NCBI GenBank assembly: GCA_965243025.1 | Contig: CBDETY010000003.1 | Span: 4,672,001-4,736,000 of the forward strand | Source: Candidatus Latescibacterota bacterium | Lineage (GTDB): Bacteria; Latescibacterota; UBA2968; UBA8231 | DNA: 64,000 nucleotides | Direction: 5' to 3' | In this document: in pieces, positions 3,637-38,413 of the stretch | How positions within the stretch are numbered: the first letter of the stretch is position 1 | Layout: every line of letters begins with the position of its first letter | The notes under the pieces: model-generated | What the model saw: only the letters and a program-made list of their open reading frames with translations | What the model was told of the DNA's origin: nothing | Databases searched by the model: none | Position numbers and translations under genes: made by a program

Positions 3637-5451
3637 GTGAAAAACCTCGGATCCTTTATCCGGCTGCTCGAGAGAGAAGGGGAACTGGCGCGGGTCGAAG
3701 CCCCGGTCGACTCCGACCTCGAGCTCGCCGAAATCCATCGCCGCGTCATCGCCGCGGGGGGACCGGCGCTGCTGTTCGAGCGCGTCGAAGGGGCGGACTT
3801 CCCCGCGGTCACCAACCTTTTCGGCACCTCCCGCCGGGTCGACCTGGCGTTCGGGCCGCGGCCTGAGCGCTTCCTGAGAGAGCTGGTCGAGGTGGCCCAC
3901 CAGCTATCCTCGCTGGCACCGCGCAAGCTCTGGGGCCACCGCGGGCTGGCGCGGGAAGCGATGCGGCTCGGCCTGCGCACCGTCCGCGGCGGCCCGGTCC
4001 TCGAATGCCGGCAGGCCGCCCCCGACCTGCGCCGCCTGCCGCTGATCAAGACCTGGCCCGAGGACGGCGGCCACTTCATCACCCTGCCGCTGGTCTACAC
4101 CGAGCACCCGGACAGCGGCCAGCACAACCTCGGCATCTACCGCATTCAGCGTCACGACCCGCGCACCCTCGGGGTGCACTGGCAGATCCAGAAGGGGGGC
4201 GGGTTCCACTACCACGTCGCCGAGCAACGGGATGAAGCCCTGCCGCTGGCGATCTTCGTCGGCGGGCCGCCGGCGCTGATCCTGTCCGCCATCGCGCCGC
4301 TGCCCGAGGGGATGCCGGAGCTGGTGCTCGCCTCCCTGCTGCAGGGCGGCAAGCTCCAGCGCGTGCGCGACCCCGGCGGTCCGCTGCCCCTGCTCGCCGA
4401 GGCGGAGTTCGCCGTCACCGGCAGGGTGCCGCCGCACCGGCGCCTGCCCGAGGGGCCTTTCGGCGACCATTTCGGGTACTACTCGCTGCGCCACGACTAC
4501 CCCTTCCTCGAGGTCGGAAACGTCTACCACCGGCGAGGCGCCGTCTTCCCCGCCACCGTCGTCGGCAAGCCGCCGCAGGAGGACCTCTACCTCGGCAACT
4601 ACATCCAGAAGCTGATGGAGCCGTTGACCGGCCTCGTCATGCCGGCGATCAAGGGGATCTGGAGCTACGGCGAGACCGGCTACCACTGCCTGTCGAGCAT
4701 CCTCGTCGAGGAACGCTACCCCCGCGAGGCGATGAAGTTCGCCTTCCGCATCTTCGGCGAGGACGGAGGGCAGCTGGCGCTGACCAAGTTCCTGGTCGTC
4801 CTCGACGGGGCCGGCGTCGAGCTGCGGGACTTCCGCCAGGTGCTGGAGCACGTGCTGGCGCGCGCCCGGTTCGAGACCGACCTGTTCGTCATCGCCAACC
4901 TCGCCATGGACACCCTCGACTACTCGGGGCCGGCGGTGAACGAGGGCAGCAAGGGGATCCTGCTGGGCGTCGGGGAGCCGCACCGCACCCTGCCGGCGGA
5001 GTTCGCCGGACCGCTGCCGGCCGGGGCCGCGGACGCGCAGCCGTACTGCGCCGGATGCCTGGCGGTCGCCGGTCCGGGGTACGCCGCCGACCCGGACTAC
5101 GGGCAGCGGCTGGCAGCCGATCCCGCGGTTGCGGAATGGCCGCTGATCTTCCTCGCCGACGACGCCGGGATCGTCGCCAGCAACGTCCGCTTTCTGTGGA
5201 CGGCGTTCACCCGCTTCGAGCCGGCGGCCGACGTCAGCGCCGCCGGGGTCCGCCTGCACCGGCACCACCCCTGCTTCACCGCTCCCGTGGTCTTCGACTG
5301 CCGCCTCAAGCCCGGATTCCCCGACGAGCTGGTGGCCGACGAGGAGATCACGCGGCGGGTGACCTCCCGCTGGGACGAGTACTTTCCCGGGGGGGGCGTC
5401 GAGGGGGAGGAGGACCGGTTCGGGTACGGGGGATTCCGGCGCCTGGACTGA
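3637..5451 (+). CDS. UbiD-family (prenyl-FMN-dependent) decarboxylase, long form
   Basis: Motifs N-terminal GELARVEAPVDSDLELAEI, WPEDGGHFITLPLV, NLGIYR, EGPFGDHFGYY, ATVVGKPPQED; GTG start. Confidence 0.9.
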   Translation: MKNLGSFIRLLEREGELARVEAPVDSDLELAEIHRRVIAAGGPALLFERVEGADFPAVTNLFGTSRRVDLAFGPRPERFLRELVEVAHQLSSLAPRKLWGHRGLAREAMRLGLRTVRGGPVLECRQAAPDLRRLPLIKTWPEDGGHFITLPLVYTEHPDSGQHNLGIYRIQRHDPRTLGVHWQIQKGGGFHYHVAEQRDEALPLAIFVGGPPALILSAIAPLPEGMPELVLASLLQGGKLQRVRDPGGPLPLLAEAEFAVTGRVPPHRRLPEGPFGDHFGYYSLRHDYPFLEVGNVYHRRGAVFPATVVGKPPQEDLYLGNYIQKLMEPLTGLVMPAIKGIWSYGETGYHCLSSILVEERYPREAMKFAFRIFGEDGGQLALTKFLVVLDGAGVELRDFRQVLEHVLARARFETDLFVIANLAMDTLDYSGPAVNEGSKGILLGVGEPHRTLPAEFAGPLPAGAADAQPYCAGCLAVAGPGYAADPDYGQRLAADPAVAEWPLIFLADDAGIVASNVRFLWTAFTRFEPAADVSAAGVRLHRHHPCFTAPVVFDCRLKPGFPDELVADEEITRRVTSRWDEYFPGGGVEGEEDRFGYGGFRRLD

Positions 5452-29687: not shown

Positions 29688-31955
29688 ATGATACCCCCGC
29701 AGCTTCCATCGGCCGTAGTCGCTTCCGCCCTGGCCGGGTCCGCGGCGCTCGCCGAAGAACCCGCCGTCTACTGGCTCTCCGCCCCGGTTCAGCCCGGGGA
29801 GACCGCCATGGTGTGCGGCTTTTTCCCCCAGCACGAGGCCATGGAAGTTGCCCTGGAGCGGCTTCCGGACGGAAACCCCGGCGAGCCTTCCGGACGGCCC
29901 TGGAAGCCCTCCGGAGACCGCGTCCCCCCCGAAGCGGTGAAGCCCCTGCAGGCGAGCGAGACCGCCCTGATGTTCGAGCTGCCCGGCAGCGGGCCTGGCG
30001 TGTACGGCTACGCCCTGCATTCCCGCGCCGGGGCCGCCAGCTCCGGGCGCCTCAACCTGCCGGCGCCCTGGTGGACGCTCGGCGACGCCGTCACCGACCG
30101 CACCCCGTTCGGCGAGTGGCGCCTCGAGGACGGCGTCGTCCATGCCGGGGGCGGCCTGCGGATCATCGGGCGCTGCCTGAAGCTGGGCGAGAAGGAGCCG
30201 GCCGTGGCCCTGCGCTCGGGGGACGGGCGCGTGACCCTGCTGGACCCGGTGAAAGCCGAGCCCTTCTGCCTCGCGGTGACGGTGCCGGAAGAGCTGACCC
30301 CGGGCCGCTACGAGCTGTTCGTGCACAACGGCTACGGCGGCGAGCAGGCCTGGAGCGAAGCGCTCGACCTCGCGGTCCTTCCCCGGCAGGAAGAGAAGGA
30401 ACAACCCCTGCTGAACGCCGCCCATTTCGGGGCGGACGGAGACGACGGAGAGGACGACACCGAGGCGATCAAGGCGGCGCTGAAGGAGGCGGGCGAGCGC
30501 GGCGGAGGAGTCGTGCTGGTGCCTCGGGGCCGCTTCGTCGTCAGCGAGAAGCTGGTGATCCCGCCGCACGTCACCCTGCGCGGGGCCGGGCGCGAGCTGA
30601 CCGCCCTCTGCATGGCCGACACCGACGATCCGCCCGACGCCTGGGTCGAGGGCTCCCACCACTTCGCCATCGAGGACCTCACCCTCTACTGCAACCACCA
30701 CTTCCACGTCATCTCCAACAACACCGCCGCGGCGGTCCACACCCCGGCGGCTCCCATCGAGGACCCGGAGACCGCCGGCCACGTGCGCCTGACCCGGGTG
30801 CGCGTGCGCGCCGACTCGTTCCGGGGCCACCTGCCGCCGGACAAGCAGGAGGAGCGCGGCCGCACCCCCGGGCCGCGCGACACCATCCGCCTGAGCGGCC
30901 CCGACATCCGCATTACCGACTGCGACGTGTACGGCTCGGAGCGCTCCATCTACCTCCACTACGCGGTCGGGGCCCTGGTGGCCGGCAACACCTTCTACAA
31001 CGGGCGCTCCGGCTGGATGAACTTCAACGGCTGCGAGAACGTCGTCTTCGAGCGCAACCGCATCGCCGGCGCCGACCTGATGGCCACCGGGGGCGGCTAC
31101 GCCTGCTTCACCCGGGGGGTATCCCGCAACATCTACACCGCCCACAACAGCTACGAGAACATGAACGGCTGGGACCGGGAGGCGTTCACCTCCGACGCCG
31201 GCGGCGGCGCCTACTTCGGCCCCGTGGCAGCGGTCGAGGGGGACTGGATCCTGCTCGCCGGCGACCCGAAGTGGCAGCACCGGCACTGGACCGGCACCCT
31301 CGTCGCCGTCATCGCCGGCCGCGGTCGCGGCCAGTACCGCTCGGTGAAGTCCTGGGACGGCAGGCGTGTGCAGCTCGACCGGCCGTTCGACGTTGCGCTC
31401 GACGAGACCTCGCGGGTCACAGTCACCATGACGCACCGGCGCTACATCTTCTACGACAACGAGACCCGCGACGCCGGCATCGCCATCCAGTTCTACGGCA
31501 CCGCCACCGAGCACATCGTCGCCGACAACCGCAGCTGGCGGAGCGACGGTTTCCGCGCCTACGGGTTCTCCTACACGGGAGGAGTCCAGCCCAACCTCTA
31601 CCTCCAGTTCCTCGGCAACGAGATCCGCGAGGGCAACTGCTACCGCTTCGAGGATCCCCTGGTCTATCCTGCCCGCCTCAGCGTCGAGGGAACCCTGCCG
31701 AGCCTCCACTTCGGCTCCGTCCTGCGCAACAACCGCCTCCACAACAACGCCCGCCTCGAGGTGGTGGTCGGCGCCAACAGCGACGGGGCTACGGAGAACG
31801 TGGTGGTCGAGGGGAACCGGGTGGAGAACTCCGATATCGGGATACTGGTGGACGCGGGATGCCGGAACGTGCTGCTGCGGGGGAACCGGATGGAAGGCTG
31901 CCTCGTGCCGCTGCAGGACGACCGTGCGCAGCAGCCGGGGCGTTCGAGGCAATGA
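29688..31955 (+). CDS. Secreted right-handed parallel beta-helix protein (pectate-lyase-3/GH28/GH55-like), putative glycan-degrading enzyme
   Basis: Signal peptide; FGADGDDGEDDTEAIKAAL..AGERGGGVVLVPRGRF...VTLRGAG motif; Asn-rich beta-helix repeats. Confidence 0.75.
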   Translation: MIPPQLPSAVVASALAGSAALAEEPAVYWLSAPVQPGETAMVCGFFPQHEAMEVALERLPDGNPGEPSGRPWKPSGDRVPPEAVKPLQASETALMFELPGSGPGVYGYALHSRAGAASSGRLNLPAPWWTLGDAVTDRTPFGEWRLEDGVVHAGGGLRIIGRCLKLGEKEPAVALRSGDGRVTLLDPVKAEPFCLAVTVPEELTPGRYELFVHNGYGGEQAWSEALDLAVLPRQEEKEQPLLNAAHFGADGDDGEDDTEAIKAALKEAGERGGGVVLVPRGRFVVSEKLVIPPHVTLRGAGRELTALCMADTDDPPDAWVEGSHHFAIEDLTLYCNHHFHVISNNTAAAVHTPAAPIEDPETAGHVRLTRVRVRADSFRGHLPPDKQEERGRTPGPRDTIRLSGPDIRITDCDVYGSERSIYLHYAVGALVAGNTFYNGRSGWMNFNGCENVVFERNRIAGADLMATGGGYACFTRGVSRNIYTAHNSYENMNGWDREAFTSDAGGGAYFGPVAAVEGDWILLAGDPKWQHRHWTGTLVAVIAGRGRGQYRSVKSWDGRRVQLDRPFDVALDETSRVTVTMTHRRYIFYDNETRDAGIAIQFYGTATEHIVADNRSWRSDGFRAYGFSYTGGVQPNLYLQFLGNEIREGNCYRFEDPLVYPARLSVEGTLPSLHFGSVLRNNRLHNNARLEVVVGANSDGATENVVVEGNRVENSDIGILVDAGCRNVLLRGNRMEGCLVPLQDDRAQQPGRSRQ

Positions 31956-32034
31956 GACCCCACCCCGGACTTCTGCAGCCGCCCCGGTTTATCGTTCCGG
32001 TCTTCTGAAGGCCCTGTAGCCCTGCCGCCCGGAC

Positions 32035-33177
32035 TCATCCCCCTCCCGGGCTCCGCCGCAGGAAATCCACCGCGCGCGGTATGGCATCTCTCAACGCGAA
32101 GATGTGGTGACCGCCTCCCTCGTAGATGAACGCCTCGAATTCGGGGGGTTCACGCTCCAGCGCTTCCATGGCCCGGATCAGGGAACGGGCCTGGCTTACG
32201 GAGACGGTTTCGTCCCTGTCGCCGTGGTGGAGCTGAACTGCGGGCAGGTCCCCGGCGAACAGGACCGGGGAGCGGCGCACCAGCTCGAGGCGGACTTCCG
32301 CGAGGCCGATTTCACCTCTCATGTAGGGCTGGATGAAGGTCGAATCGATGTGGGCGACCCCGGTCAGGTCGCGCGGAAAGCCCATGGCCGCTTCCCGCGC
32401 AATCTCCCGGACCCAGTCGTCGAAGAAGTCGGTGGGTCCGAAGAAGGCCACGATTTTCTCGATGCGCTCGTCGCGGATCCCGGCCAGCATGGCGACCCCT
32501 GCTCCCCGGCTGCCGCCGACGATGCTCAGGCCTTCGATACTCGCCTGCGGCGTCAACTCCAATGCGACGTTGAGGAGCGCCAGGGCGTCGTCCACGTCGT
32601 AGTCCCAGTGACCGCCGGGCCCCGTCGAAACCCACTCCCGGTCCTCGTACTCCAGCGGTTCGCTGCGAAAGGACGGGACCACGTAGACGAAACTGCCGCG
32701 CCGTTCGCCCAGGGCGAAAACCACGAGGTCGATGTCATCCACCTCGACGCCGCCGTCGCCCCCGTGCAGGTACATCAGGATGGGCAAGCTGCCAGCAGCC
32801 GCGGAGTCGGGGGCGAGGATCGCTCCGTAGTGGAGTACCTCCCCCACCCTGTGGGATACGACGCGCAGGGTCGCGGGGATCCCGTCCAGCGGATACGACC
32901 CGGTGTGTTCGACGGCCGCCCCGGCCGCCGAAATGTCGCGCCGGGCCCAGTCGGCGCGGACGGCCTCCACCTCGGCGGGGGTCGCAGGCGCGAAGAGGTC
33001 GTCGAGCCTGGTCTCCAGGATCGGATCGGCAACGGGCTCCCCCGGATCGACGGACTGATCGCATCCCCCCAGCAGCCCAGGCAGGAGCACCGCCAGCAGT
33101 CGAAGGCGACGCCGCGAGCCGGGATGGGTCGGCCCCCCGGCCAGCGCATGAGCCCTGTGGCCTCGCCTGGGAACCAT
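32035..33177 (-). CDS. Alpha/beta-hydrolase lipoprotein (prolyl oligopeptidase/esterase-like)
   Basis: Lipobox LLGGC; YLHGG, nucleophile GGSRG, HHGDRDETV, YEGGGH. ATG at 33177 chosen as start. Confidence 0.82.
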   Translation of the reverse strand: MVPRRGHRAHALAGGPTHPGSRRRLRLLAVLLPGLLGGCDQSVDPGEPVADPILETRLDDLFAPATPAEVEAVRADWARRDISAAGAAVEHTGSYPLDGIPATLRVVSHRVGEVLHYGAILAPDSAAAGSLPILMYLHGGDGGVEVDDIDLVVFALGERRGSFVYVVPSFRSEPLEYEDREWVSTGPGGHWDYDVDDALALLNVALELTPQASIEGLSIVGGSRGAGVAMLAGIRDERIEKIVAFFGPTDFFDDWVREIAREAAMGFPRDLTGVAHIDSTFIQPYMRGEIGLAEVRLELVRRSPVLFAGDLPAVQLHHGDRDETVSVSQARSLIRAMEALEREPPEFEAFIYEGGGHHIFALRDAIPRAVDFLRRSPGGG

Positions 33178-33218
33178 CGCCCCGACCGGTCCGTCCCCGG
33201 CCCCCCGGTCCCGCCGGT

Positions 33219-33285
33219 TCAGTCGTAGTACTCGTGGCCGAGGTGGGTGATCAGGTCCTCGCCCTGCAGGTAGCGCAGCGTGTTC
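33219..33285 (-). repeat. 67-bp perfect direct repeat: orphan copy of the ino1 3' end (NTLRYLQGEDLITHLGHEYYD-stop)
   Basis: Identical base for base to 34107..34173. Confidence 0.97.
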
Positions 33286-33345
33286 GGCGAGTGAGGGCAC
33301 GCGGAATTGCGCCTCCCTGTGCAGACGCGGACAGGCGCCCCGGCA

Positions 33346-33597
33346 CTATCCCTCCGGTTCGTCTTCCGGCAGCGGGGGCTCGTCGGGGGCGGCGTCCAGG
33401 AACGGGAGCATGTCCCCGGGCTCGGCATCTCCAGCGCGCTGCTGGAGGAACTCGGAGGCGGTCTCGACAGCTCCGATCTTCTGCGCTACAGCCGCGGAGA
33501 TCCACTGGTTGAGGGAGACGCCGTCCTTTTTGGCAAGCCGCTGGGCCGCGGATTTCACCGAGGCGGGCAGTTTGAGCGGGTATGCGGATTTGCTCAT
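33346..33597 (-). CDS. Ribbon-helix-helix (HicB-like) antitoxin
   Basis: MSKSAYPLKLPASVKSAAQRLAKKDGVSLNQWISAAVAQK with an acidic tail; ATGA overlap with the toxin stop codon. Confidence 0.85.
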   Translation of the reverse strand: MSKSAYPLKLPASVKSAAQRLAKKDGVSLNQWISAAVAQKIGAVETASEFLQQRAGDAEPGDMLPFLDAAPDEPPLPEDEPEG

Positions 33598-34019
33598 CCT
33601 TCGACCTCCTCCAGCAACCGGCCCGGGGTGAGGGTTCGCAAACCGAAGCGCCGGGCGGCAGGGGCAAGGTGCCTGAGGTTGTGGGTTACCAGTGCGTCCG
33701 CCTGTCCGTTGATTGCGGCTTCGAGAACCATCTCGTCGCCCGGATCCTTCAACTGCGGCCGCCAACGAAACCGCGCCTCCACTGGCTGACAGGAACTGGC
33801 GAAGGCGCTGAGAAACCTGCGGATCCCGCCCGGATCGAGCCCGTGAGCCAGCCGCTGCTCCGGCCTGCTCAGAACCTCCTCGTACTCGAGAAACAGAGCG
33901 ACGGTCACCAGCGGAATCAACTGCTGCCTGGCGACAAGGCGAAGCACCTCGTTGCTTGCCCCGGTCCTGCTCCTCAGGGCGGCTACGACCACCGAGGTGT
34001 CCAGCACGACGCGGAGCAT
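33594..34019 (-). CDS. PIN-domain (VapC-like) toxin
   Basis: RVVLDTSVVVAA, LEYEEVL, DPGDEMVLEAA....AD.LVTHN. Confidence 0.9.
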   Translation of the reverse strand: MLRVVLDTSVVVAALRSRTGASNEVLRLVARQQLIPLVTVALFLEYEEVLSRPEQRLAHGLDPGGIRRFLSAFASSCQPVEARFRWRPQLKDPGDEMVLEAAINGQADALVTHNLRHLAPAARRFGLRTLTPGRLLEEVEG

Positions 34020-34026
34020 GTCTTAT

Positions 34027-34054
34027 AGGATATCACATCTCATAGGATGTGCAA
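34027..34054 (-). promoter_or_regulatory. TA operon promoter with overlapping operator
   Basis: Minus strand TTGCAC-N16-TATCCT ends 7 nt before the toxin ATG. CACATC-N6-GATGTG inverted repeat at 34034..34051 and tandem TCTYATAGGAT repeats overlap it. Confidence 0.65.
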
Positions 34055-34106
34055 CCCGGGAGGTGTCTTCCCCGTTCCTTCCTGACCGGCAGCACCTCGG
34101 TTCCCG

Positions 34107-35420
34107 TCAGTCGTAGTACTCGTGGCCGAGGTGGGTGATCAGGTCCTCGCCCTGCAGGTAGCGCAGCGTGTTCTTCAGCTTCATCAGCTGAATGAACAGA
34201 TCGTGCTCCGGGTACAGCCCCGGGGCCGTCTGCGGGCTCTTGAAATAGAACGACAGCCACTCCTGGACGCCGTGCATCCCGGCGCGCTGGGCGAGGTCGG
34301 CGAAGAGCACGAGATCGAGCACCAGCGGCGCCGCCAGGATGCTGTCGCGGCAGAGCAGGTCGACCTTGATCTGCATCGGGTACCCGAGCCAGCCGAAGAT
34401 GTCGATGTTGTCCCAGCCCTCCTTCTCGTCGCCGCGCGGCGGGTAGTAGTTGATGCGCACCTTGTGGTACAGCTCGCCGTAGAGCGACGGGTACAGGTGC
34501 GGCTGCAGGATGTAGTCGAGGACCCCGAGCTTCGACTCCTCCTTGGTCTTGAAGGAGTCCGGGTCGTCGAGCACCTCGCCGTCCCGGTTGCCGAGGATGT
34601 TGGTGGAGAACCAGCCGCGCACCCCCAGCATCCGCGCCTTGAGGCCGGGGGCCAGCAGCGTCTTCATCAGGGTCTGTCCGGTCTTGAAGTCCTTGCCGGC
34701 GACCGGCACCCGGTTGGCCTTCGCCAGCTCGACCATCGCCGGGATGTCGACGGTGAGGTTGGGCGCTCCGTTGAGGTAGGGCACCCCCTCGCTGAGCGCC
34801 GCGTACGCGTAGATCATGCTCGGGGCGATCGACGGGTCGTTCTCGCGCAGCCCCTTCTCGAACGCCTCGACGCTGGCGTGCGCCCTGCCCCCTTCGAGGA
34901 AGACCTCGGTGCTGCCGCACCAGATCATCACCGCCCGTTCGAGGCCGTTGGCGCTCTTGAAGCGCTGGATGTCCTCGCGCGTCTGCTGGGCCATGTCCCA
35001 CTTGTTCTTCCCCTGCTTCACGTGCGAGCCCTCGAGCCGCTTGACGTAATCGCGGTCGAAAACCGCCTTCATCGGGGTGACCGCCGCCAGCGGATCCTTC
35101 AGCTGGTCGAGTGTCTTCTGCTCGATCACCCCGGCGTGGGTCGCCGCCTCCCAGGCGTCGTCGGGGAAGACGTCCCAGCCGCCGAATACGAGATCCTCCA
35201 GGGCGGCCAGGGGTACGAACTCCCTGATGAGAGGGGAGCGGTCCTCGGTGCGCCTGCCGAGGCGGATGGCGCCCATCTGGGACAGCGATCCGACCGGTTC
35301 GCCGAGGCCGGCCTTGATCGCCTCGACCCCGGCTATGAAGGTGGTGGCGACGGCCCCCATTCCCGGGATGAGCACGCCGAGTTTCCCGTCCGGGGGAGCG
35401 ATGGTTTCCGGTTTGTTCAT
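34107..35420 (-). CDS. ino1: myo-Inositol-1-phosphate (inositol-3-phosphate) synthase
   Basis: GMGAVATT, VFGGWD, STE, NGAPN, GKDFKTGQT.MK, STNILGNRDG, YYPPRGDEKEGWD, CRDSILAAPLVLDL. Confidence 0.95.
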   Translation of the reverse strand: MNKPETIAPPDGKLGVLIPGMGAVATTFIAGVEAIKAGLGEPVGSLSQMGAIRLGRRTEDRSPLIREFVPLAALEDLVFGGWDVFPDDAWEAATHAGVIEQKTLDQLKDPLAAVTPMKAVFDRDYVKRLEGSHVKQGKNKWDMAQQTREDIQRFKSANGLERAVMIWCGSTEVFLEGGRAHASVEAFEKGLRENDPSIAPSMIYAYAALSEGVPYLNGAPNLTVDIPAMVELAKANRVPVAGKDFKTGQTLMKTLLAPGLKARMLGVRGWFSTNILGNRDGEVLDDPDSFKTKEESKLGVLDYILQPHLYPSLYGELYHKVRINYYPPRGDEKEGWDNIDIFGWLGYPMQIKVDLLCRDSILAAPLVLDLVLFADLAQRAGMHGVQEWLSFYFKSPQTAPGLYPEHDLFIQLMKLKNTLRYLQGEDLITHLGHEYYD

Positions 35421-35482
35421 TCGTTCGATTCCTCCTGGGTTCGTTGGCGGTTCGAAGCTACGGAACGGCTGCCATAAGACAA

Positions 35483-35519
35483 ATCGATAATGACTATATT
35501 ATCGATAGATATTCTCTAT
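35483..35519. promoter_or_regulatory. LysR-type operator region between the divergent ino1 and LysR genes
   Basis: ATAG-N7-CTAT (T-N11-A box) at 35505..35519 and ATCGATAAT-N6-ATTATCGAT palindrome at 35483..35506, within an AT-rich patch. Confidence 0.75.
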
Positions 35520-35536
35520 AATTATCCGGCACCATC

Positions 35537-36469
35537 ATGAACCTCCACCACCTCCGCTATTTCCTGGCGGTCGCCAGGACAAGCGGTTTCACCCGGGCGG
35601 CCAGGGACCTCCGCGTCACCCAGCCGACCGTCAGCAGCGGGATCGCCGAGTTGGAACGACTCCTCGGGACGCGGTTGTTCGACCGCGCGGGGCGTCGAGT
35701 CGATCTCACCCTGGAGGGCCGGGCCCTGCTGACCTACGCCCTTCAGATAGAAGACCTCGTCGACGAAGCGGTGGAGCGGGTGCGCAAGGGGGACGCCCTC
35801 GCGGAGCAGGGGTTCCGCTTCGGCGCCATCGACGCGGCCGTCATCTACCTGCTGCCCGAGGTCCTGCAGTCCTACAGGGAGTCCCACCCCCGGGTCGAGC
35901 TGACCACGCAGGTCGCCTCGTCGCGCTACCTCGTCGAGGACCTGCTGATGAACCGCTCGGAGTTCGCCGTCATCACCCTGCCGTTCGAGCACCCGCGCAT
36001 TGCGACGCTCTCCCTCGTCCGGGACGAGATGCCGCTCGTCGCCGGCGCCGGCCACCGGCTTGCCGGACGCGCCGCGGTTGCCGCCGAAGTCGCCGCCGAA
36101 CCGCTGATCCTGTTCCACTCCGAGTCGGTGTCGCGCCGGATCGTCGACGAGCGCTTCGCCGAACTGGGGATCGCGCCGCGGGTCGCCATGGAGATGCGCT
36201 CCCCCGAAGCGATGCGCATGCTCGTCGAGTCCGGCATGGGGATCTCGTTCCTGCCGCGCATGACCGCGGCGGAGTCGCTGGCGGCCGGGACCCTGTGCCT
36301 GGTGCCGGCCCCGGAGCTGCGCTTCGAGCGCGAGATCGGCCTGGCGTGGAGAAAGGGGCGTTACTTCGGCCCGGCGATCCGCGGTCTCATCGACGCCGTC
36401 GCCGACCGCTTCGGCAAGCTCGAACTGCTGCGGGAGGGCCTGGTCTCAACCGACGCAGGAGGAAGCTGA
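35537..36469 (+). CDS. LysR-family transcriptional regulator
   Basis: MNLHHLRYFLAVA...FTRAA..L.VTQPTVS..I..LE..LG..LFDR HTH, followed by a substrate-binding domain. Confidence 0.95.
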   Translation: MNLHHLRYFLAVARTSGFTRAARDLRVTQPTVSSGIAELERLLGTRLFDRAGRRVDLTLEGRALLTYALQIEDLVDEAVERVRKGDALAEQGFRFGAIDAAVIYLLPEVLQSYRESHPRVELTTQVASSRYLVEDLLMNRSEFAVITLPFEHPRIATLSLVRDEMPLVAGAGHRLAGRAAVAAEVAAEPLILFHSESVSRRIVDERFAELGIAPRVAMEMRSPEAMRMLVESGMGISFLPRMTAAESLAAGTLCLVPAPELRFEREIGLAWRKGRYFGPAIRGLIDAVADRFGKLELLREGLVSTDAGGS

Positions 36470-36602
36470 GCGGGTGGGCGGGTCAATCGACGGCCAGCCG
36501 GATCCGAGGGACCAGCAGCGCGGAGGAGCAGGTGGTGCGGCGCCACAACCGACGGGAGACGAATCCCTGCCCCGACCTGCGCCGCCATTTCCGGTACGGG
36601 TA

Positions 36603-36792
36603 TCAACCGCCGGCGTCGAGCCGGACCGGAGGGACGCCGGCTTCGCCGCGAGAATCCCCCCCAAAGCTCGCCCCACGAAGGGCGAACGGCTCGATATCCA
36701 GGCTCCACGAAGCAAGTCACGCATCGTCCCGACACTTTTCTCCAGCCCTTCCCCCGAAAGAACGCGGAGGCCTCGCTCGCCGCCCCTGATGA
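36603..36792 (-). pseudogene. Diverged, frameshifted orphan copy of the 3' part of the DUF309 gene
   Basis: Fragments ERGLRVLSGEGLEK / SGRCVTCFV / LDIEPFA / VPPVRLDAGG-stop align to intact ERGFRLLSGNGLEK / AGRCGRCFM / LDIEGFA / IPPIRLDLGG-stop. Confidence 0.85.
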
Positions 36793-36831
36793 CCGGGATC
36801 GCCGCGACTGCAGTGTGGGGCCCGGGGTGGA

Positions 36832-37362
36832 TCAACCGCCGAGGTCGAGCCGGATCGGCGGAATGGCGGCGGCCCCGGATACCCCGCCGCCGCGAAACTC
36901 CCGCCAGGCAGCGGCGAAGCCCTCGATATCCAGCCCCATGAAGCATCTCCCGCACCGTCCCGCCGCTTCCTCCAGCTTCTCCAGGCCGTTCCCGGAGAGA
37001 AGCCGGAATCCGCGCTCGTTTCCCTGGTGCTGCTTGATCGCCGCCGCGGCGAGCTGGATCAGCCCCTGCAGGAACAGCCCCTCGGCGGTCCGCGGCCCGG
37101 CGCGCTGCCACTTCGGCTCCCACTGCTCGTGCGCTTCCCACCAGAAGCCGTGGTTGTAGAGGTCGACCCCGAGCAGGTACGCCTTGTCGTCGCGCCAGCC
37201 GGCGCTTTCAGAGACGGTCTCCTCGAAGGGGTCGCCGAAGCGGTGACCCTGCGGATGCCTGTGCGGGTGGGGGGTTTCGCCGGGCAGGTGGCGGTAGCTC
37301 GGAAAGGGGACCTCGGGAACGTAGCGGACGACGCCGGCAGGAGAGGGCTTTTGCTCAGCCAC
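36832..37362 (-). CDS. DUF309 domain protein
   Basis: GVDLYNHGFWWEAHEQWE...LQGLIQLAAA; GTG start at 37362 inferred. Confidence 0.85.
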   Translation of the reverse strand: MAEQKPSPAGVVRYVPEVPFPSYRHLPGETPHPHRHPQGHRFGDPFEETVSESAGWRDDKAYLLGVDLYNHGFWWEAHEQWEPKWQRAGPRTAEGLFLQGLIQLAAAAIKQHQGNERGFRLLSGNGLEKLEEAAGRCGRCFMGLDIEGFAAAWREFRGGGVSGAAAIPPIRLDLGG

Positions 37363-37378
37363 GGCTTCCCGTAGGAGG

Positions 37379-38413
37379 TCAGACCGCGACCGCAGAAACC
37401 GCCGGCCCGGACACACCCTCCGTCTCCGGCAGGGCGCCGGCCAGCTCTTCGAGGCGGTCCTCGACGGCGGCGGCCTCCCGGTACTGCGACAGCTCGGCGC
37501 GCAGGCGGGCGGCCTGGCGCAGGCCGCGGAAGTAGCCGCTGTAGTGGCGGCGCAGGGAGATCACCGCCTGGCGCTCGCCGCGCTCCCTGACGGCGAGGCG
37601 CAGGTGCTCGAGACAGACCTCGCTGCGCTCGCGCGCCGACGGGGCGGGCAGATGACTGCCGGTGGCGAGGAAGTGCCGCGACTCGCGGAACACCCAGGGG
37701 TGGCGGATGGCGCCGCGGCCGATCATCACCGCGTCGCACCCGGTGTCGGCGAACGCGGCGGCGACCTCCTCGGCCCGCGTCAGGTCCCCGTTGAGGATGA
37801 CGGGTATGGAGACCGCCTCCTTGATCATGGGGATGTAGCGGTAATCGACCTCCCCCTTGTGGCCCTGGGCCCGGGTGCGGCAGTGCACGGCGAGGGCCCG
37901 CACCCCGATCCCCTCGAGCATGCGCGCCACCTCGACGATGCGGATCGAGCCGGCGTCCCAGCCGAGCCGCGTCTTCACCGTGACCGGCAGATGGGTCGCC
38001 GACTGCACCCGCGACACCACCTCCCTCATGCGCGGCAGGTCGCGCAGCAGGCCGGCGCCGGCGCCGCGCAGGGCGACGTTGCTGACCCAGCAGCCGCAGT
38101 TGATGTCGATGAGATCGGGCCCGGCGGAGGTGGCGATTTCGGCGGCCCTCTCCATCGACAGCTCCGAGGCGCCGTAGATCTGGATGCCGAACGGCCGCTC
38201 CTCCGGGAGGAACTTCAGCTTGTCGTGGGTGCGCCGCCGGCCGCTCTCCAGCTCGCGCACCAGCCCCTCGGCGTTGACGAACTCGGTGTAGACGATGTCG
38301 GCCCCGAGGCGCCGGCAGATGACGCGGAACGGCAGGTCGGAGACGTCCTCCATCGGCGCCAGCAGCAGCCCCGGGGAAACGCGGACCGCGCCGATGGTCA
38401 GGGAGGGGGCCAT
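37379..38413 (-). CDS. dusB: tRNA-dihydrouridine synthase B
   Basis: LAPMEDVSD, TEFV, QIYG, IDINCGC, GAGAGL, PVTVKTRLGW, VHCRTR, NGD, MIGRGA..HPW. Confidence 0.9.
   Translation of the reverse strand: MAPSLTIGAVRVSPGLLLAPMEDVSDLPFRVICRRLGADIVYTEFVNAEGLVRELESGRRRTHDKLKFLPEERPFGIQIYGASELSMERAAEIATSAGPDLIDINCGCWVSNVALRGAGAGLLRDLPRMREVVSRVQSATHLPVTVKTRLGWDAGSIRIVEVARMLEGIGVRALAVHCRTRAQGHKGEVDYRYIPMIKEAVSIPVILNGDLTRAEEVAAAFADTGCDAVMIGRGAIRHPWVFRESRHFLATGSHLPAPSARERSEVCLEHLRLAVRERGERQAVISLRRHYSGYFRGLRQAARLRAELSQYREAAAVEDRLEELAGALPETEGVSGPAVSAVAV

Follow-up and report, generated by a model that had tools for sequence, protein, structure and literature searches.

Toxin-antitoxin cassettes between duplicated gene ends in a Latescibacterota genome, with a predicted PIN pair at the 3' end of ino1

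Insertion with long target duplication is said to have been described for restriction-modification (RM) systems by Nobusato et al. 2000. In the portions of their work drawn on here, Furuta, Abe and Kobayashi 2010 (PMC2853133) report it for RM systems of all types, with repeats of tens to hundreds of bp around the inserts, insert-free sites in relatives and no mobility genes, and with overlap between the repeats and gene 3' ends in two cases from H. influenzae. As its cause they name a property such as the making of double-strand breaks by the restriction enzyme, and a cycle of invasion, repeat-mediated amplification and release is proposed. As far as the consulted part of it goes, the review of Mruk and Kobayashi 2013 (PMC3874152) credits this mode to RM and not to toxin-antitoxin (TA) systems, and a literature search, with subscription journals and supplements outside its scope, gave no report of TA pairs inserted with long target duplication. 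How chromosomal TA pairs move is an old open question; they are patchy in distribution and evidently transferred, and are often found outside recognisable mobile elements. The subject here is a predicted TA pair within a 64,000-nt stretch of the forward strand of a Latescibacterota chromosome (the window, meaning this whole stretch), where it sits between two copies of the 3' end of ino1, the gene of myo-inositol-1-phosphate synthase, together with further loci of this genome and its relatives that share the architecture.

The genome of the window (G000, 6.8 Mb, with C3 denoting coordinates on its chromosome) was compared with two relatives of the same genus, G001 and G002, which at 94% mutual nucleotide identity are sister species, G000 being their outgroup at 89-91%. 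Gene calling in G000 gave 4420 open reading frames (ORFs) picked by codon-position GC, covering 79% of the genome. Protein families were assigned with Pfam and NCBIfam profiles and repeats were found with BLAST and blastn, with MAFFT used for the alignment of a second repeat pair in the window, at a DUF309 gene.

The ino1 cassette and its age

All genes of interest at ino1 and at the DUF309 gene lie on the minus strand, and the features of the ino1 locus are as follows.

34107..35420, minus strand: ino1, myo-inositol-1-phosphate synthase, the intact host gene (Pfam NAD_binding_5 342 bits, Inos-1-P_synth 110 bits)
34107..34173, minus strand: repeat copy 1, the functional final 67 nt of ino1 including the stop codon (100% identical to 33219-33285)
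33219..33285, minus strand: repeat copy 2, the orphan ino1 tail (perfect match to copy 1)
33286..34106, minus strand: insert of 821 nt, consisting of an 87-nt leader with a promoter-like region, toxin, antitoxin and a 60-nt trailer
33594..34019, minus strand: toxin gene of the PIN_3 family, 141 aa (PF13470 83.3 bits, cut-off 27)
33346..33597, minus strand: antitoxin-like gene, 83 aa, its start overlapping the toxin stop (ATGA)

The 67-nt tail of ino1 recurs 888 nt downstream without a mismatch (E 3e-28 against the whole 6.8-Mb genome by BLAST), both copies stopping exactly at the TGA, with the following base A in one and C in the other. The toxin gene also matches NCBIfam TIGR00305 (50.1 bits, cut-off 29.15) and the antitoxin-like gene has sub-threshold matches only, to HicB (20.3 bits, cut-off 21) and YlcI_YnfO_N (23.7 bits, cut-off 30), and going by these profiles the insert is a predicted type II PIN TA pair. 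A first-pass annotation of the window had pointed out this perfect copy ending at the stop and enclosing a TA module, as well as the lack of a recombinase, and both observations hold. With Pfam run on the neighbouring genes no recombinase gene was found in or beside the ino1 or DUF309 repeat pairs, and the six Phage_integrase matches in G000 all lie at least 300 kb from ino1, the nearest being about 306 kb away. The cassette has no second copy elsewhere in G000, just two weak matches of 39-44 nt.

The insert is very probably a minimal TA cassette whose entry went along with a long duplication at the end of the gene it targeted. In this reading ino1 is completed by the copy upstream, and the copy downstream is the displaced orphan, which still adjoins its old neighbour, a peptidase gene. 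This structure is not an artefact of assembly, as an independent contig of 1477 nt from a sponge metagenome of another study (X1) spans window positions 32947-34413 and thus bridges the insert together with both its repeats; it differs from the window by 23 substitutions and 10 gap positions and has, in the orphan tail of that strain, a 1-nt insertion behind 33255. No joint that skips the insert was found over positions 32700-34700 in contigs of the metagenome runs X15, X16, X1 and X2, although contigs drop rare variants and are uninformative on excision. The same 2 kb of the window is present in contigs of these four sponge and marine runs, which come from several studies, and the ino1 part draws many related metagenome contigs at 90-95% identity, so relatives co-occur.

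The perfect repeat had suggested a young scar, yet comparison with the relatives indicates that the insertion is old. The ino1 proteins of G001 and G002 are 95% identical in amino acids to that of G000, and 17-25 nt after the gene both genomes have kept the final ~90 nt of the antitoxin gene (87% identity in G002, 75% in G001), followed by ~58 nt and then a convergent beta-helix gene. The toxin gene, the 5' part of the antitoxin gene, the orphan tail and the peptidase gene are missing from both. Because both sister species hold a remnant of the same antitoxin, the cassette would have entered ino1 before the three species split. All nine ino1 loci from other genera (9/9) have just one tail, and their 1.5-kb flanks match neither PIN nor antitoxin. 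Given this age, the 100% identity of the repeat is no sign of youth, since the orphan at another locus, hemL, is no older and is already down to 86%; from that comparison it is likely that gene conversion between the ino1 copies keeps them identical.

The neighbouring genes, one of which gives context only, are these.

32035..33177, minus strand: gene of an S9-like peptidase lipoprotein, the native downstream neighbour of the orphan tail (weak Peptidase_S9 match)
29688..31955, plus strand: beta-helix protein gene, convergent, with Pfam Beta_helix and pectate-lyase-like matches, at the far edge of the segment missing from G001 and G002
35537..36469, plus strand: LysR regulator gene between the ino1 and DUF309 loci, context only (Pfam HTH_1, LysR_substrate)

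The sister species (loci L005 and L006) miss ~1.3-1.4 kb relative to window positions 31925-33345, including the peptidase gene and the orphan tail. Similarity of the beta-helix gene to G001 and G002 ends at 31924, at residue 748 of 755, and the final seven codons differ. As the pair of peptidase and beta-helix genes is syntenic in another genus (g14, 87.6% nucleotide identity), it is the sister species that would have lost the segment, with no gain in G000. In genus g14 ino1 was not found adjoining the peptidase gene within 8 kb.

Nucleotide relatives of the ino1 cassette (72-81%) occur elsewhere in genus g18, where at L032 and L034-L037 the antitoxin is kept (78-84% amino acid identity) and of the PIN gene either nothing remains or just the final 38 codons, leaving orphan antitoxins. 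Genus g14 has distant pairs of PIN_3 and antitoxin genes (~36% identity, orientations vary) at L020, L021, L022 and L027, and these pairs adjoin the orthologous peptidase gene in three genomes. The neighbourhood of the peptidase gene may be a repeated landing place.

Further loci, relatives and the DUF309 contrast

The first-pass annotation had proposed that small cargo docks repeatedly at the ends of unrelated genes, without an integrase and with duplications of varied length. Such sites are indeed seen in G000 and in its relatives, and judging by protein families the cargo is TA modules, at least among the cases that can be named. The sites with cargo that stand out in G000, besides ino1, are listed here.

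C3 5609973-5611256: hemL, repeat 58 nt (86%), GC-poor insert of 766 nt with ParE_toxin and an HTH antitoxin
C3 3642570-3644516: gene of a 648-aa protein, repeat 99 nt (91%), insert of 354 nt with a YgiT/MqsA-type antitoxin
C3, ending at 2815123: 3-hydroxyacyl-CoA dehydrogenase gene, repeat 97 nt (99%), insert of 2238 nt with AbiEi and AbiEii
Host gene not assigned: VapBC pair, repeat 40 nt (98%), insert of 2242 nt

The sites, at least nine of them independent, involve genes with no relation to one another and repeats of 40-457 nt. As minimal TA units the inserts fit closely around their open reading frames, and where the repeats look young (98-100% identical, of native GC) the inserts between them are GC-poor (0.51-0.59, against flanks of 0.66-0.73). 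A motif shared at the junctions had been thought worth looking for, and nine inserts were compared for shared ends or inverted repeats without a match. The Phage_integrase matches of G000 also lie at least 300 kb from the hemL, 648-aa-gene and dehydrogenase-gene sites, and there is no such match in any insert examined, including a version of ~8 kb in G001.

Single-tail alleles, which were to be expected in relatives if cargo had been gained, were found for hemL, the dehydrogenase gene and two host genes outside G000, L132 and L100. At hemL, G002 has one tail and no insert, and G001 has one tail and then the sequence that in G000 follows the orphan; over the final 46 nt the functional tail of G000 is identical to that in G002, and four changes are found in the orphan alone. 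G001 also has ~650 nt of other DNA, with no family match, ~108 nt downstream of hemL (G001:C9:330586-331238, L092), whereas in G000 the ParE cassette stands right at the hemL stop codon. The dehydrogenase gene has a single 97-nt copy and no insert in G002, while G001 and G000 carry an insert between the same repeats, for which these alleles suggest, as the simplest history, a single gain and then, in G002, a precise loss between the repeats. All three species have the insert at the 648-aa gene, where G002 has kept the DUF4258 toxin partner that G000 has lost, and where the insert measures ~8 kb in G001 and 354 nt in G000 with homologous edges, the extra ~8 kb holding DDE transposases only and no integrase. 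The L132 host gene is a single copy without insert in G002 and G000, and that of L100 is so in three of the four other genomes of its genus, the fourth having no match.

The repeat copies themselves differ in ways that bear on their origin. At L100 the functional tail is native, and every clear difference is confined to the orphan. At L129 in G002 it is the orphan that is nearer the outgroup allele (23/454 differences, against 35/457 for the functional tail), and over the informative sites the orphan is native at 23 and the functional copy at 11 (p 0.058). The 13 differences at L132 fall in complementary blocks, the orphan being non-native in columns 1-85 and the functional copy in columns 82-289 (p 0.051). 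At a second AbiEi/AbiEii locus (L068, G000:C3:6407200-6412500) the repeat of 336 nt (98%) consists of the antitoxin gene's own 3' part, with a third partial copy 4 kb on that adjoins a DUF6036 nucleotidyltransferase gene, a repeat logic unlike that of the gene-end cases.

Toxin loci were also counted without regard to host genes, a locus being scored as bracketed when direct repeats of at least 30 nt surround it, with 300 random 350-nt segments of G000 as the control. The 34 loci of G000 (24 PIN, 3 further PIN_3, 3 ParE and 4 AbiEii) include 5 that are bracketed, compared with 17/300 random segments (Fisher p 0.06), the random matches being mostly low-identity repeats within large repetitive genes. 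Bracketed loci make up 4/28 of the PIN_3 loci in other genomes of the family and 4/30 of the PIN loci in G001 and G002 together, so that 13/92 are bracketed in the pooled set (p 0.01). The VapBC pair with 40-nt repeats, L109, L142 and L146 were scored as bracketed and left out of the tail cases on account of an ambiguous host gene or kind of repeat. Tail cases in the relatives are L100 (100 nt), L132 (397 nt) and L129 (457 nt), and gene heads are duplicated too: the repeat at L104 is 48 nt long and runs across a start codon, and that at L040/L102 takes in 382 nt from the 5' part of an ecfT-like gene. Cargo and host gene share their orientation in 8 of 10 clear cases (p 0.11), and the claim of co-orientation was dropped.

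The duplication of heads does not fit the tail-specific process that had been proposed, and the genome-wide excess of tail duplications that it would imply was not seen either. Queries made from gene tails gave 421 nearby direct matches in G000 and those made from gene heads 426. The whole chromosome was also compared with itself in an unbiased way, 10 kb at a time, and the 2169 direct matches so obtained form 348 clusters. Most of the repeat pairs are paralogue arrays or tandem duplications, and as 71 pairs are of the tail type and 65 of the head type, tails are not favoured overall.

The DUF309 gene, taken in the first-pass annotation for a second and older docking scar, has the following features.

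36832..37416, minus strand: DUF309 gene (PF03745 60.8 bits)
36832..37044, minus strand: functional DUF309 tail, the first tandem unit, ~213 nt (from alignments)
36603..36805, minus strand: orphan DUF309 tail, the diverged and frameshifted second unit, ending in TGA (~80% identity, indels)
36806..36831, minus strand: stretch of 26 nt between the DUF309 stop and the copy, without cargo (read from the sequence)
36488..36509, minus strand: weak third tail-like motif, a hairpin and TGA (family D5, 22 nt at 77%)

The description of the copy as frameshifted and in the same orientation is correct, although it encloses 26 nt and not ~40, and the repeat is ~205-213 nt long and not ~190. The unit spacing is 229-239 nt, and the identity of the two tails is 80% in the MAFFT alignment and 70.5% by blastn; among the several indels between them is an 8-nt gap. 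From the DUF309 stop to the LysR stop is ~120 nt in G001 and G002, which leaves no room for a second copy, against 363 nt in G000. The flank after the orphan stop is homologous to that after the single stop in G001 and G002, and the homology of the 26-nt stretch to their downstream flank is weak. The arrangement thus reads as an ordinary tandem duplication, with a unit of ~230 nt spanning the stop codon, and as distinct from the ino1 case, so that a cargo-docking scar here is not borne out. As in ordinary tandem duplication by slippage or unequal crossing-over, the units of ~230 nt stand head to tail and enclose no foreign DNA, the original downstream flank follows on the second unit and the sister species have a single unit; the sole difference is the weak trace of an older round nearby. 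That trace is the motif at 36488..36509, which is possibly left from an earlier duplication, though the evidence is weak; a similar motif is found ~40 nt past the DUF309 stop in G001. The whole-chromosome scan found at least five further cargo-free tandem duplications spanning stop codons in G000, with spacings of 81-351 nt.

A 165-nt element with terminal inverted repeats (reference copy G000:C3:1448747-1448911) has 93 BLAST matches in the genome, of which 29 are near full length at 92% identity or more, and behaves as a miniature inverted-repeat transposable element (MITE); one copy lies at about C3:2857018-2857131. The insert at the dehydrogenase gene starts with the last 31 nt of this MITE (C3:2815152-2815182), therefore the donor of the insert would have belonged to this lineage. 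Pieces of the element were not found at the hemL, 648-aa-gene or DUF309 sites, only in the dehydrogenase-gene insert and at the peptidase gene, as follows.

33101..33133, no strand assigned: 33-nt piece like the MITE interior in the 5' region of the peptidase gene (91% to element positions 38-70)

Elsewhere on the chromosome, C3:826600-830100, 910900-912200 and 2406600-2409200 hold arrays of ~210-nt ORFs with a 354-nt period and 78-88% identity, and C3:5448000-5471100 is a region of low GC (0.55-0.61) that contains several direct repeats of 71-295 nt, perfect or nearly so, including a 71-78-nt unit at three places. On the contig G000:C1 (14.6 kb) positions 1-500 recur at 4879-5378, with more matches at ~4.95-kb spacing, and the contig may represent the concatemeric assembly of a small circular element.

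How the duplicated ends may have arisen

It is an even call whether the ino1 locus is, taken as a whole statement with its inferred mechanism, a TA insertion with long target duplication made by single-crossover docking of a circle that carried the gene tail. By such a mechanism a small circle, made of the cassette and one copy of a gene end, would recombine with the chromosomal gene end in one homologous Campbell-type crossover carried out by the host recombination functions. Because the host crossover would do the docking, no integrase would be needed and any conserved gene end could be used. Later recombination between the repeats could either homogenise the copies or excise the unit precisely as a circle. 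Addictive cargo would penalise loss, and for this reason TA modules, like RM systems, would be over-represented among the insertions that survive. A single site-specific enzyme is unlikely, since the inserts share no ends, the repeats come from unrelated genes and no recombinase is near.

The position of the repeat ends is part of the argument. In five of seven tail cases, three of the seven having been picked or noticed partly because of it, the repeat ends no more than 4 nt from the host stop, where 0.34 such cases are expected, and the tail cases found by census alone end at the stop in 3/5 (p 5e-4). No DNA enzyme that recognises stop codons is known to us. Between diverged relatives homology does stop where the coding sequence does, and docking driven by homology is favoured for that reason, with trimming by deletions as an alternative cause of the same pattern. 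The complementary blocks at L132 also support docking, as a single crossover with a diverged donor predicts such blocks. The replacement tail brought by the element itself, which the first-pass annotation had put forward together with the single crossover, may be visible at L129 and L132, where the case from the aligned copies is borderline; the native functional tails at hemL and L100 do not bear it out.

Several points weigh against docking and against the wider pattern. The hemL and L100 functional tails are native and only their orphans changed, which fits plain target duplication equally well; L129 in G001 runs the opposite way to G002, with 15 orphan-native and 21 functional-native sites; and the two tests in favour of a tail brought by the element give borderline p values (0.058 and 0.051). 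The perfect repeat on an old ino1 insertion requires gene conversion, which is inferred from the hemL orphan at 86%. The model does not explain how a circle with a gene end and a TA pair first originated. As for the census, enrichment in the window's own genome stands at p 0.06, and the sharper contrast under a stricter cut (at least 86% identity and a gap of at most 2.5 kb, 5/34 against 1/300) rests on thresholds set after the data had been seen. There is no detectable flanking repeat at 79/92 TA loci, and many repeat-bracketed inserts hold cargo that is non-TA or unidentified, with the cargo of 20 further bracketed loci mostly giving no Pfam or NCBIfam match. The partial selection of the stop-codon cases counts here too, and the ORF calls are crude.

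Evidence is mixed between two families of model that remain, a gene end carried by the element with one crossover, or recipient sequence duplicated in an illegitimate insertion. The latter, a true target-site duplication, would come from illegitimate or replicative insertion (for instance through staggered breaks on sister chromosomes that are joined by way of a foreign fragment, or through template switching) of an element without a tail, both repeat copies deriving from the recipient's own sequence. Its support lies in the hemL and L100 differences being confined to the orphans, in the native GC and near identity of the young-looking repeats around GC-poor inserts, and in the MITE end of the dehydrogenase-gene insert, which makes that insert look like a random genomic fragment and no defined cassette. 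It leaves unexplained the ends at stop codons in five of the seven tail cases and the patterns at L129 and L132, and most of the toxins here (PIN RNases, AbiEii) do not break DNA. A break-based origin is the one preferred for RM systems in the consulted portions of Furuta et al. 2010 (PMC2853133). True target-site duplication is judged here to be rather unlikely for the present loci. That the repeats are instead the attL and attR of larger integrase-borne elements, which entered gene 3' ends site-specifically with a replacement tail and have decayed to their TA pair, is less probable again. Inserts do shrink, as the two sizes at the 648-aa gene indicate, TA pairs are typical survivors of island decay, and the L129 functional tail differs from the displaced native tail as at icd; yet no Phage_integrase match is present in any examined insert, the 8-kb one included, the six in the genome are at least 300 kb from ino1 and from the hemL, 648-aa-gene and dehydrogenase-gene sites, and islands of this kind would hardly give nine or more independent sites with unrelated repeats of 40-457 nt, duplicated gene heads and minimal units that hug their ORFs.

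Two unrelated steps are also conceivable, in which the gene end was first duplicated in tandem, as at DUF309 and the five or more other cargo-free cases that make this common in G000, which gave a harmless place to land, and a cassette was later inserted between the units by whatever route. This is very improbable, as the cassette must land exactly at the unit junction at every locus, the single-copy sites of sister species show one tail and no cargo-free duplication, and none of the relatives searched has a tail duplication without a cassette. The chance that the ino1 structure is an assembly artefact or a chance repeat, for which only the metagenome-type assembly and its 6% estimated contamination could speak, is negligible, for the X1 contig refutes an artefact, the 67-nt match is perfect at E 3e-28 in G000 and the same architecture is present in other assemblies.

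If single-crossover docking is carried further, it is a tentative possibility that TA pairs, like RM systems, are autonomous "homology-docking" cassettes which spread horizontally without a recombinase. A gene end and its cargo would loop out as a circle and exit the cell, perhaps from cells killed by the loss, and the circle would dock again in a related species at the conserved end of the same housekeeping gene by the recipient's homologous recombination. Since between species only coding sequence can still be aligned, the repeats would then reach as far as the stop or start codon and end there. Homology docking, if true, would be a general route for addiction modules and would explain their patchy and island-free distribution.

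Comparison with known systems

Of the described systems the RM insertions with long target duplication are the closest, both being small addictive units with no mobility gene and with variable direct repeats of more than 30 bp. Measured by what defines that class, the ino1 insert is an apparently complete addictive unit well below 20 kb (821 nt, with PIN_3 toxin and antitoxin-like genes, as predicted), its target duplication of 67 nt exceeds 30 bp, as do those of 58, 97, 99, 100, 397 and 457 nt at other loci, and no mobility gene is in or beside the unit, the nearest Phage_integrase match being ~306 kb off. Single-copy, insert-free relatives of ino1 exist at the 9/9 loci of other genera, the same-genus pair holding the remnant instead, and clean single-copy sister sites are known for hemL, the dehydrogenase gene, L132 and L100. 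The cargo is a TA pair and not an RM system, and since everything apart from the kind of cargo agrees, the present loci are regarded as a TA variant of the class.

The differences are in cargo and cause. The cargo here is type II and type IV TA pairs, and whilst the RM mode is attributed to breakage by the restriction enzyme, most toxins of the present loci cannot supply breaks. Repeat ends clustered at stops and possible element-borne tails belong to the present loci and are not among the findings in the consulted portions of PMC2853133. An insertion mode known only for RM systems would be extended in this way to a second class of addiction module, and as its toxins mostly do not cut DNA the mode is argued to depend on addiction or on host recombination and not on restriction breaks. 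The loci supply a concrete architecture with filled and single-copy alleles in sister species, and in annotation short orphan tails or heads beside small GC-poor inserts can be taken to mark such events, and not pseudogenes of unknown origin.

Integration into gene 3' ends with a replacement tail is known from phage 21 and e14 at icd and from ICESt1 at fda, along with its integrase-less CIME derivatives. As in those islands, a second tail keeps the gene intact at the present loci and the original is displaced downstream as an orphan. Integrase islands encode or borrow a tyrosine integrase for one att site, whereas here there is neither an integrase nor a common att core, the inserts share no ends, and the targets are unrelated genes whose heads are also used. 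TA cassettes of chromosomal integrons are likewise minimal TA units that have no transposase of their own and stabilise their surroundings, but they carry attC, stand in arrays beside an integrase gene and duplicate no host gene end; the ino1 cassette is single, among ordinary neighbours and has no integrase nearby.

Campbell-type insertion-duplication gives the same product as is seen here, fragment, insert and fragment, is reversible through the repeats and, where the fragment holds the end of the gene, leaves one intact gene copy. It is a laboratory tool, used in suicide-plasmid mutagenesis, and the repeats of the present loci are as short as 40-67 nt. By analogy with it, TA circles of 0.4-2.5 kb may have a natural life cycle of the same kind.

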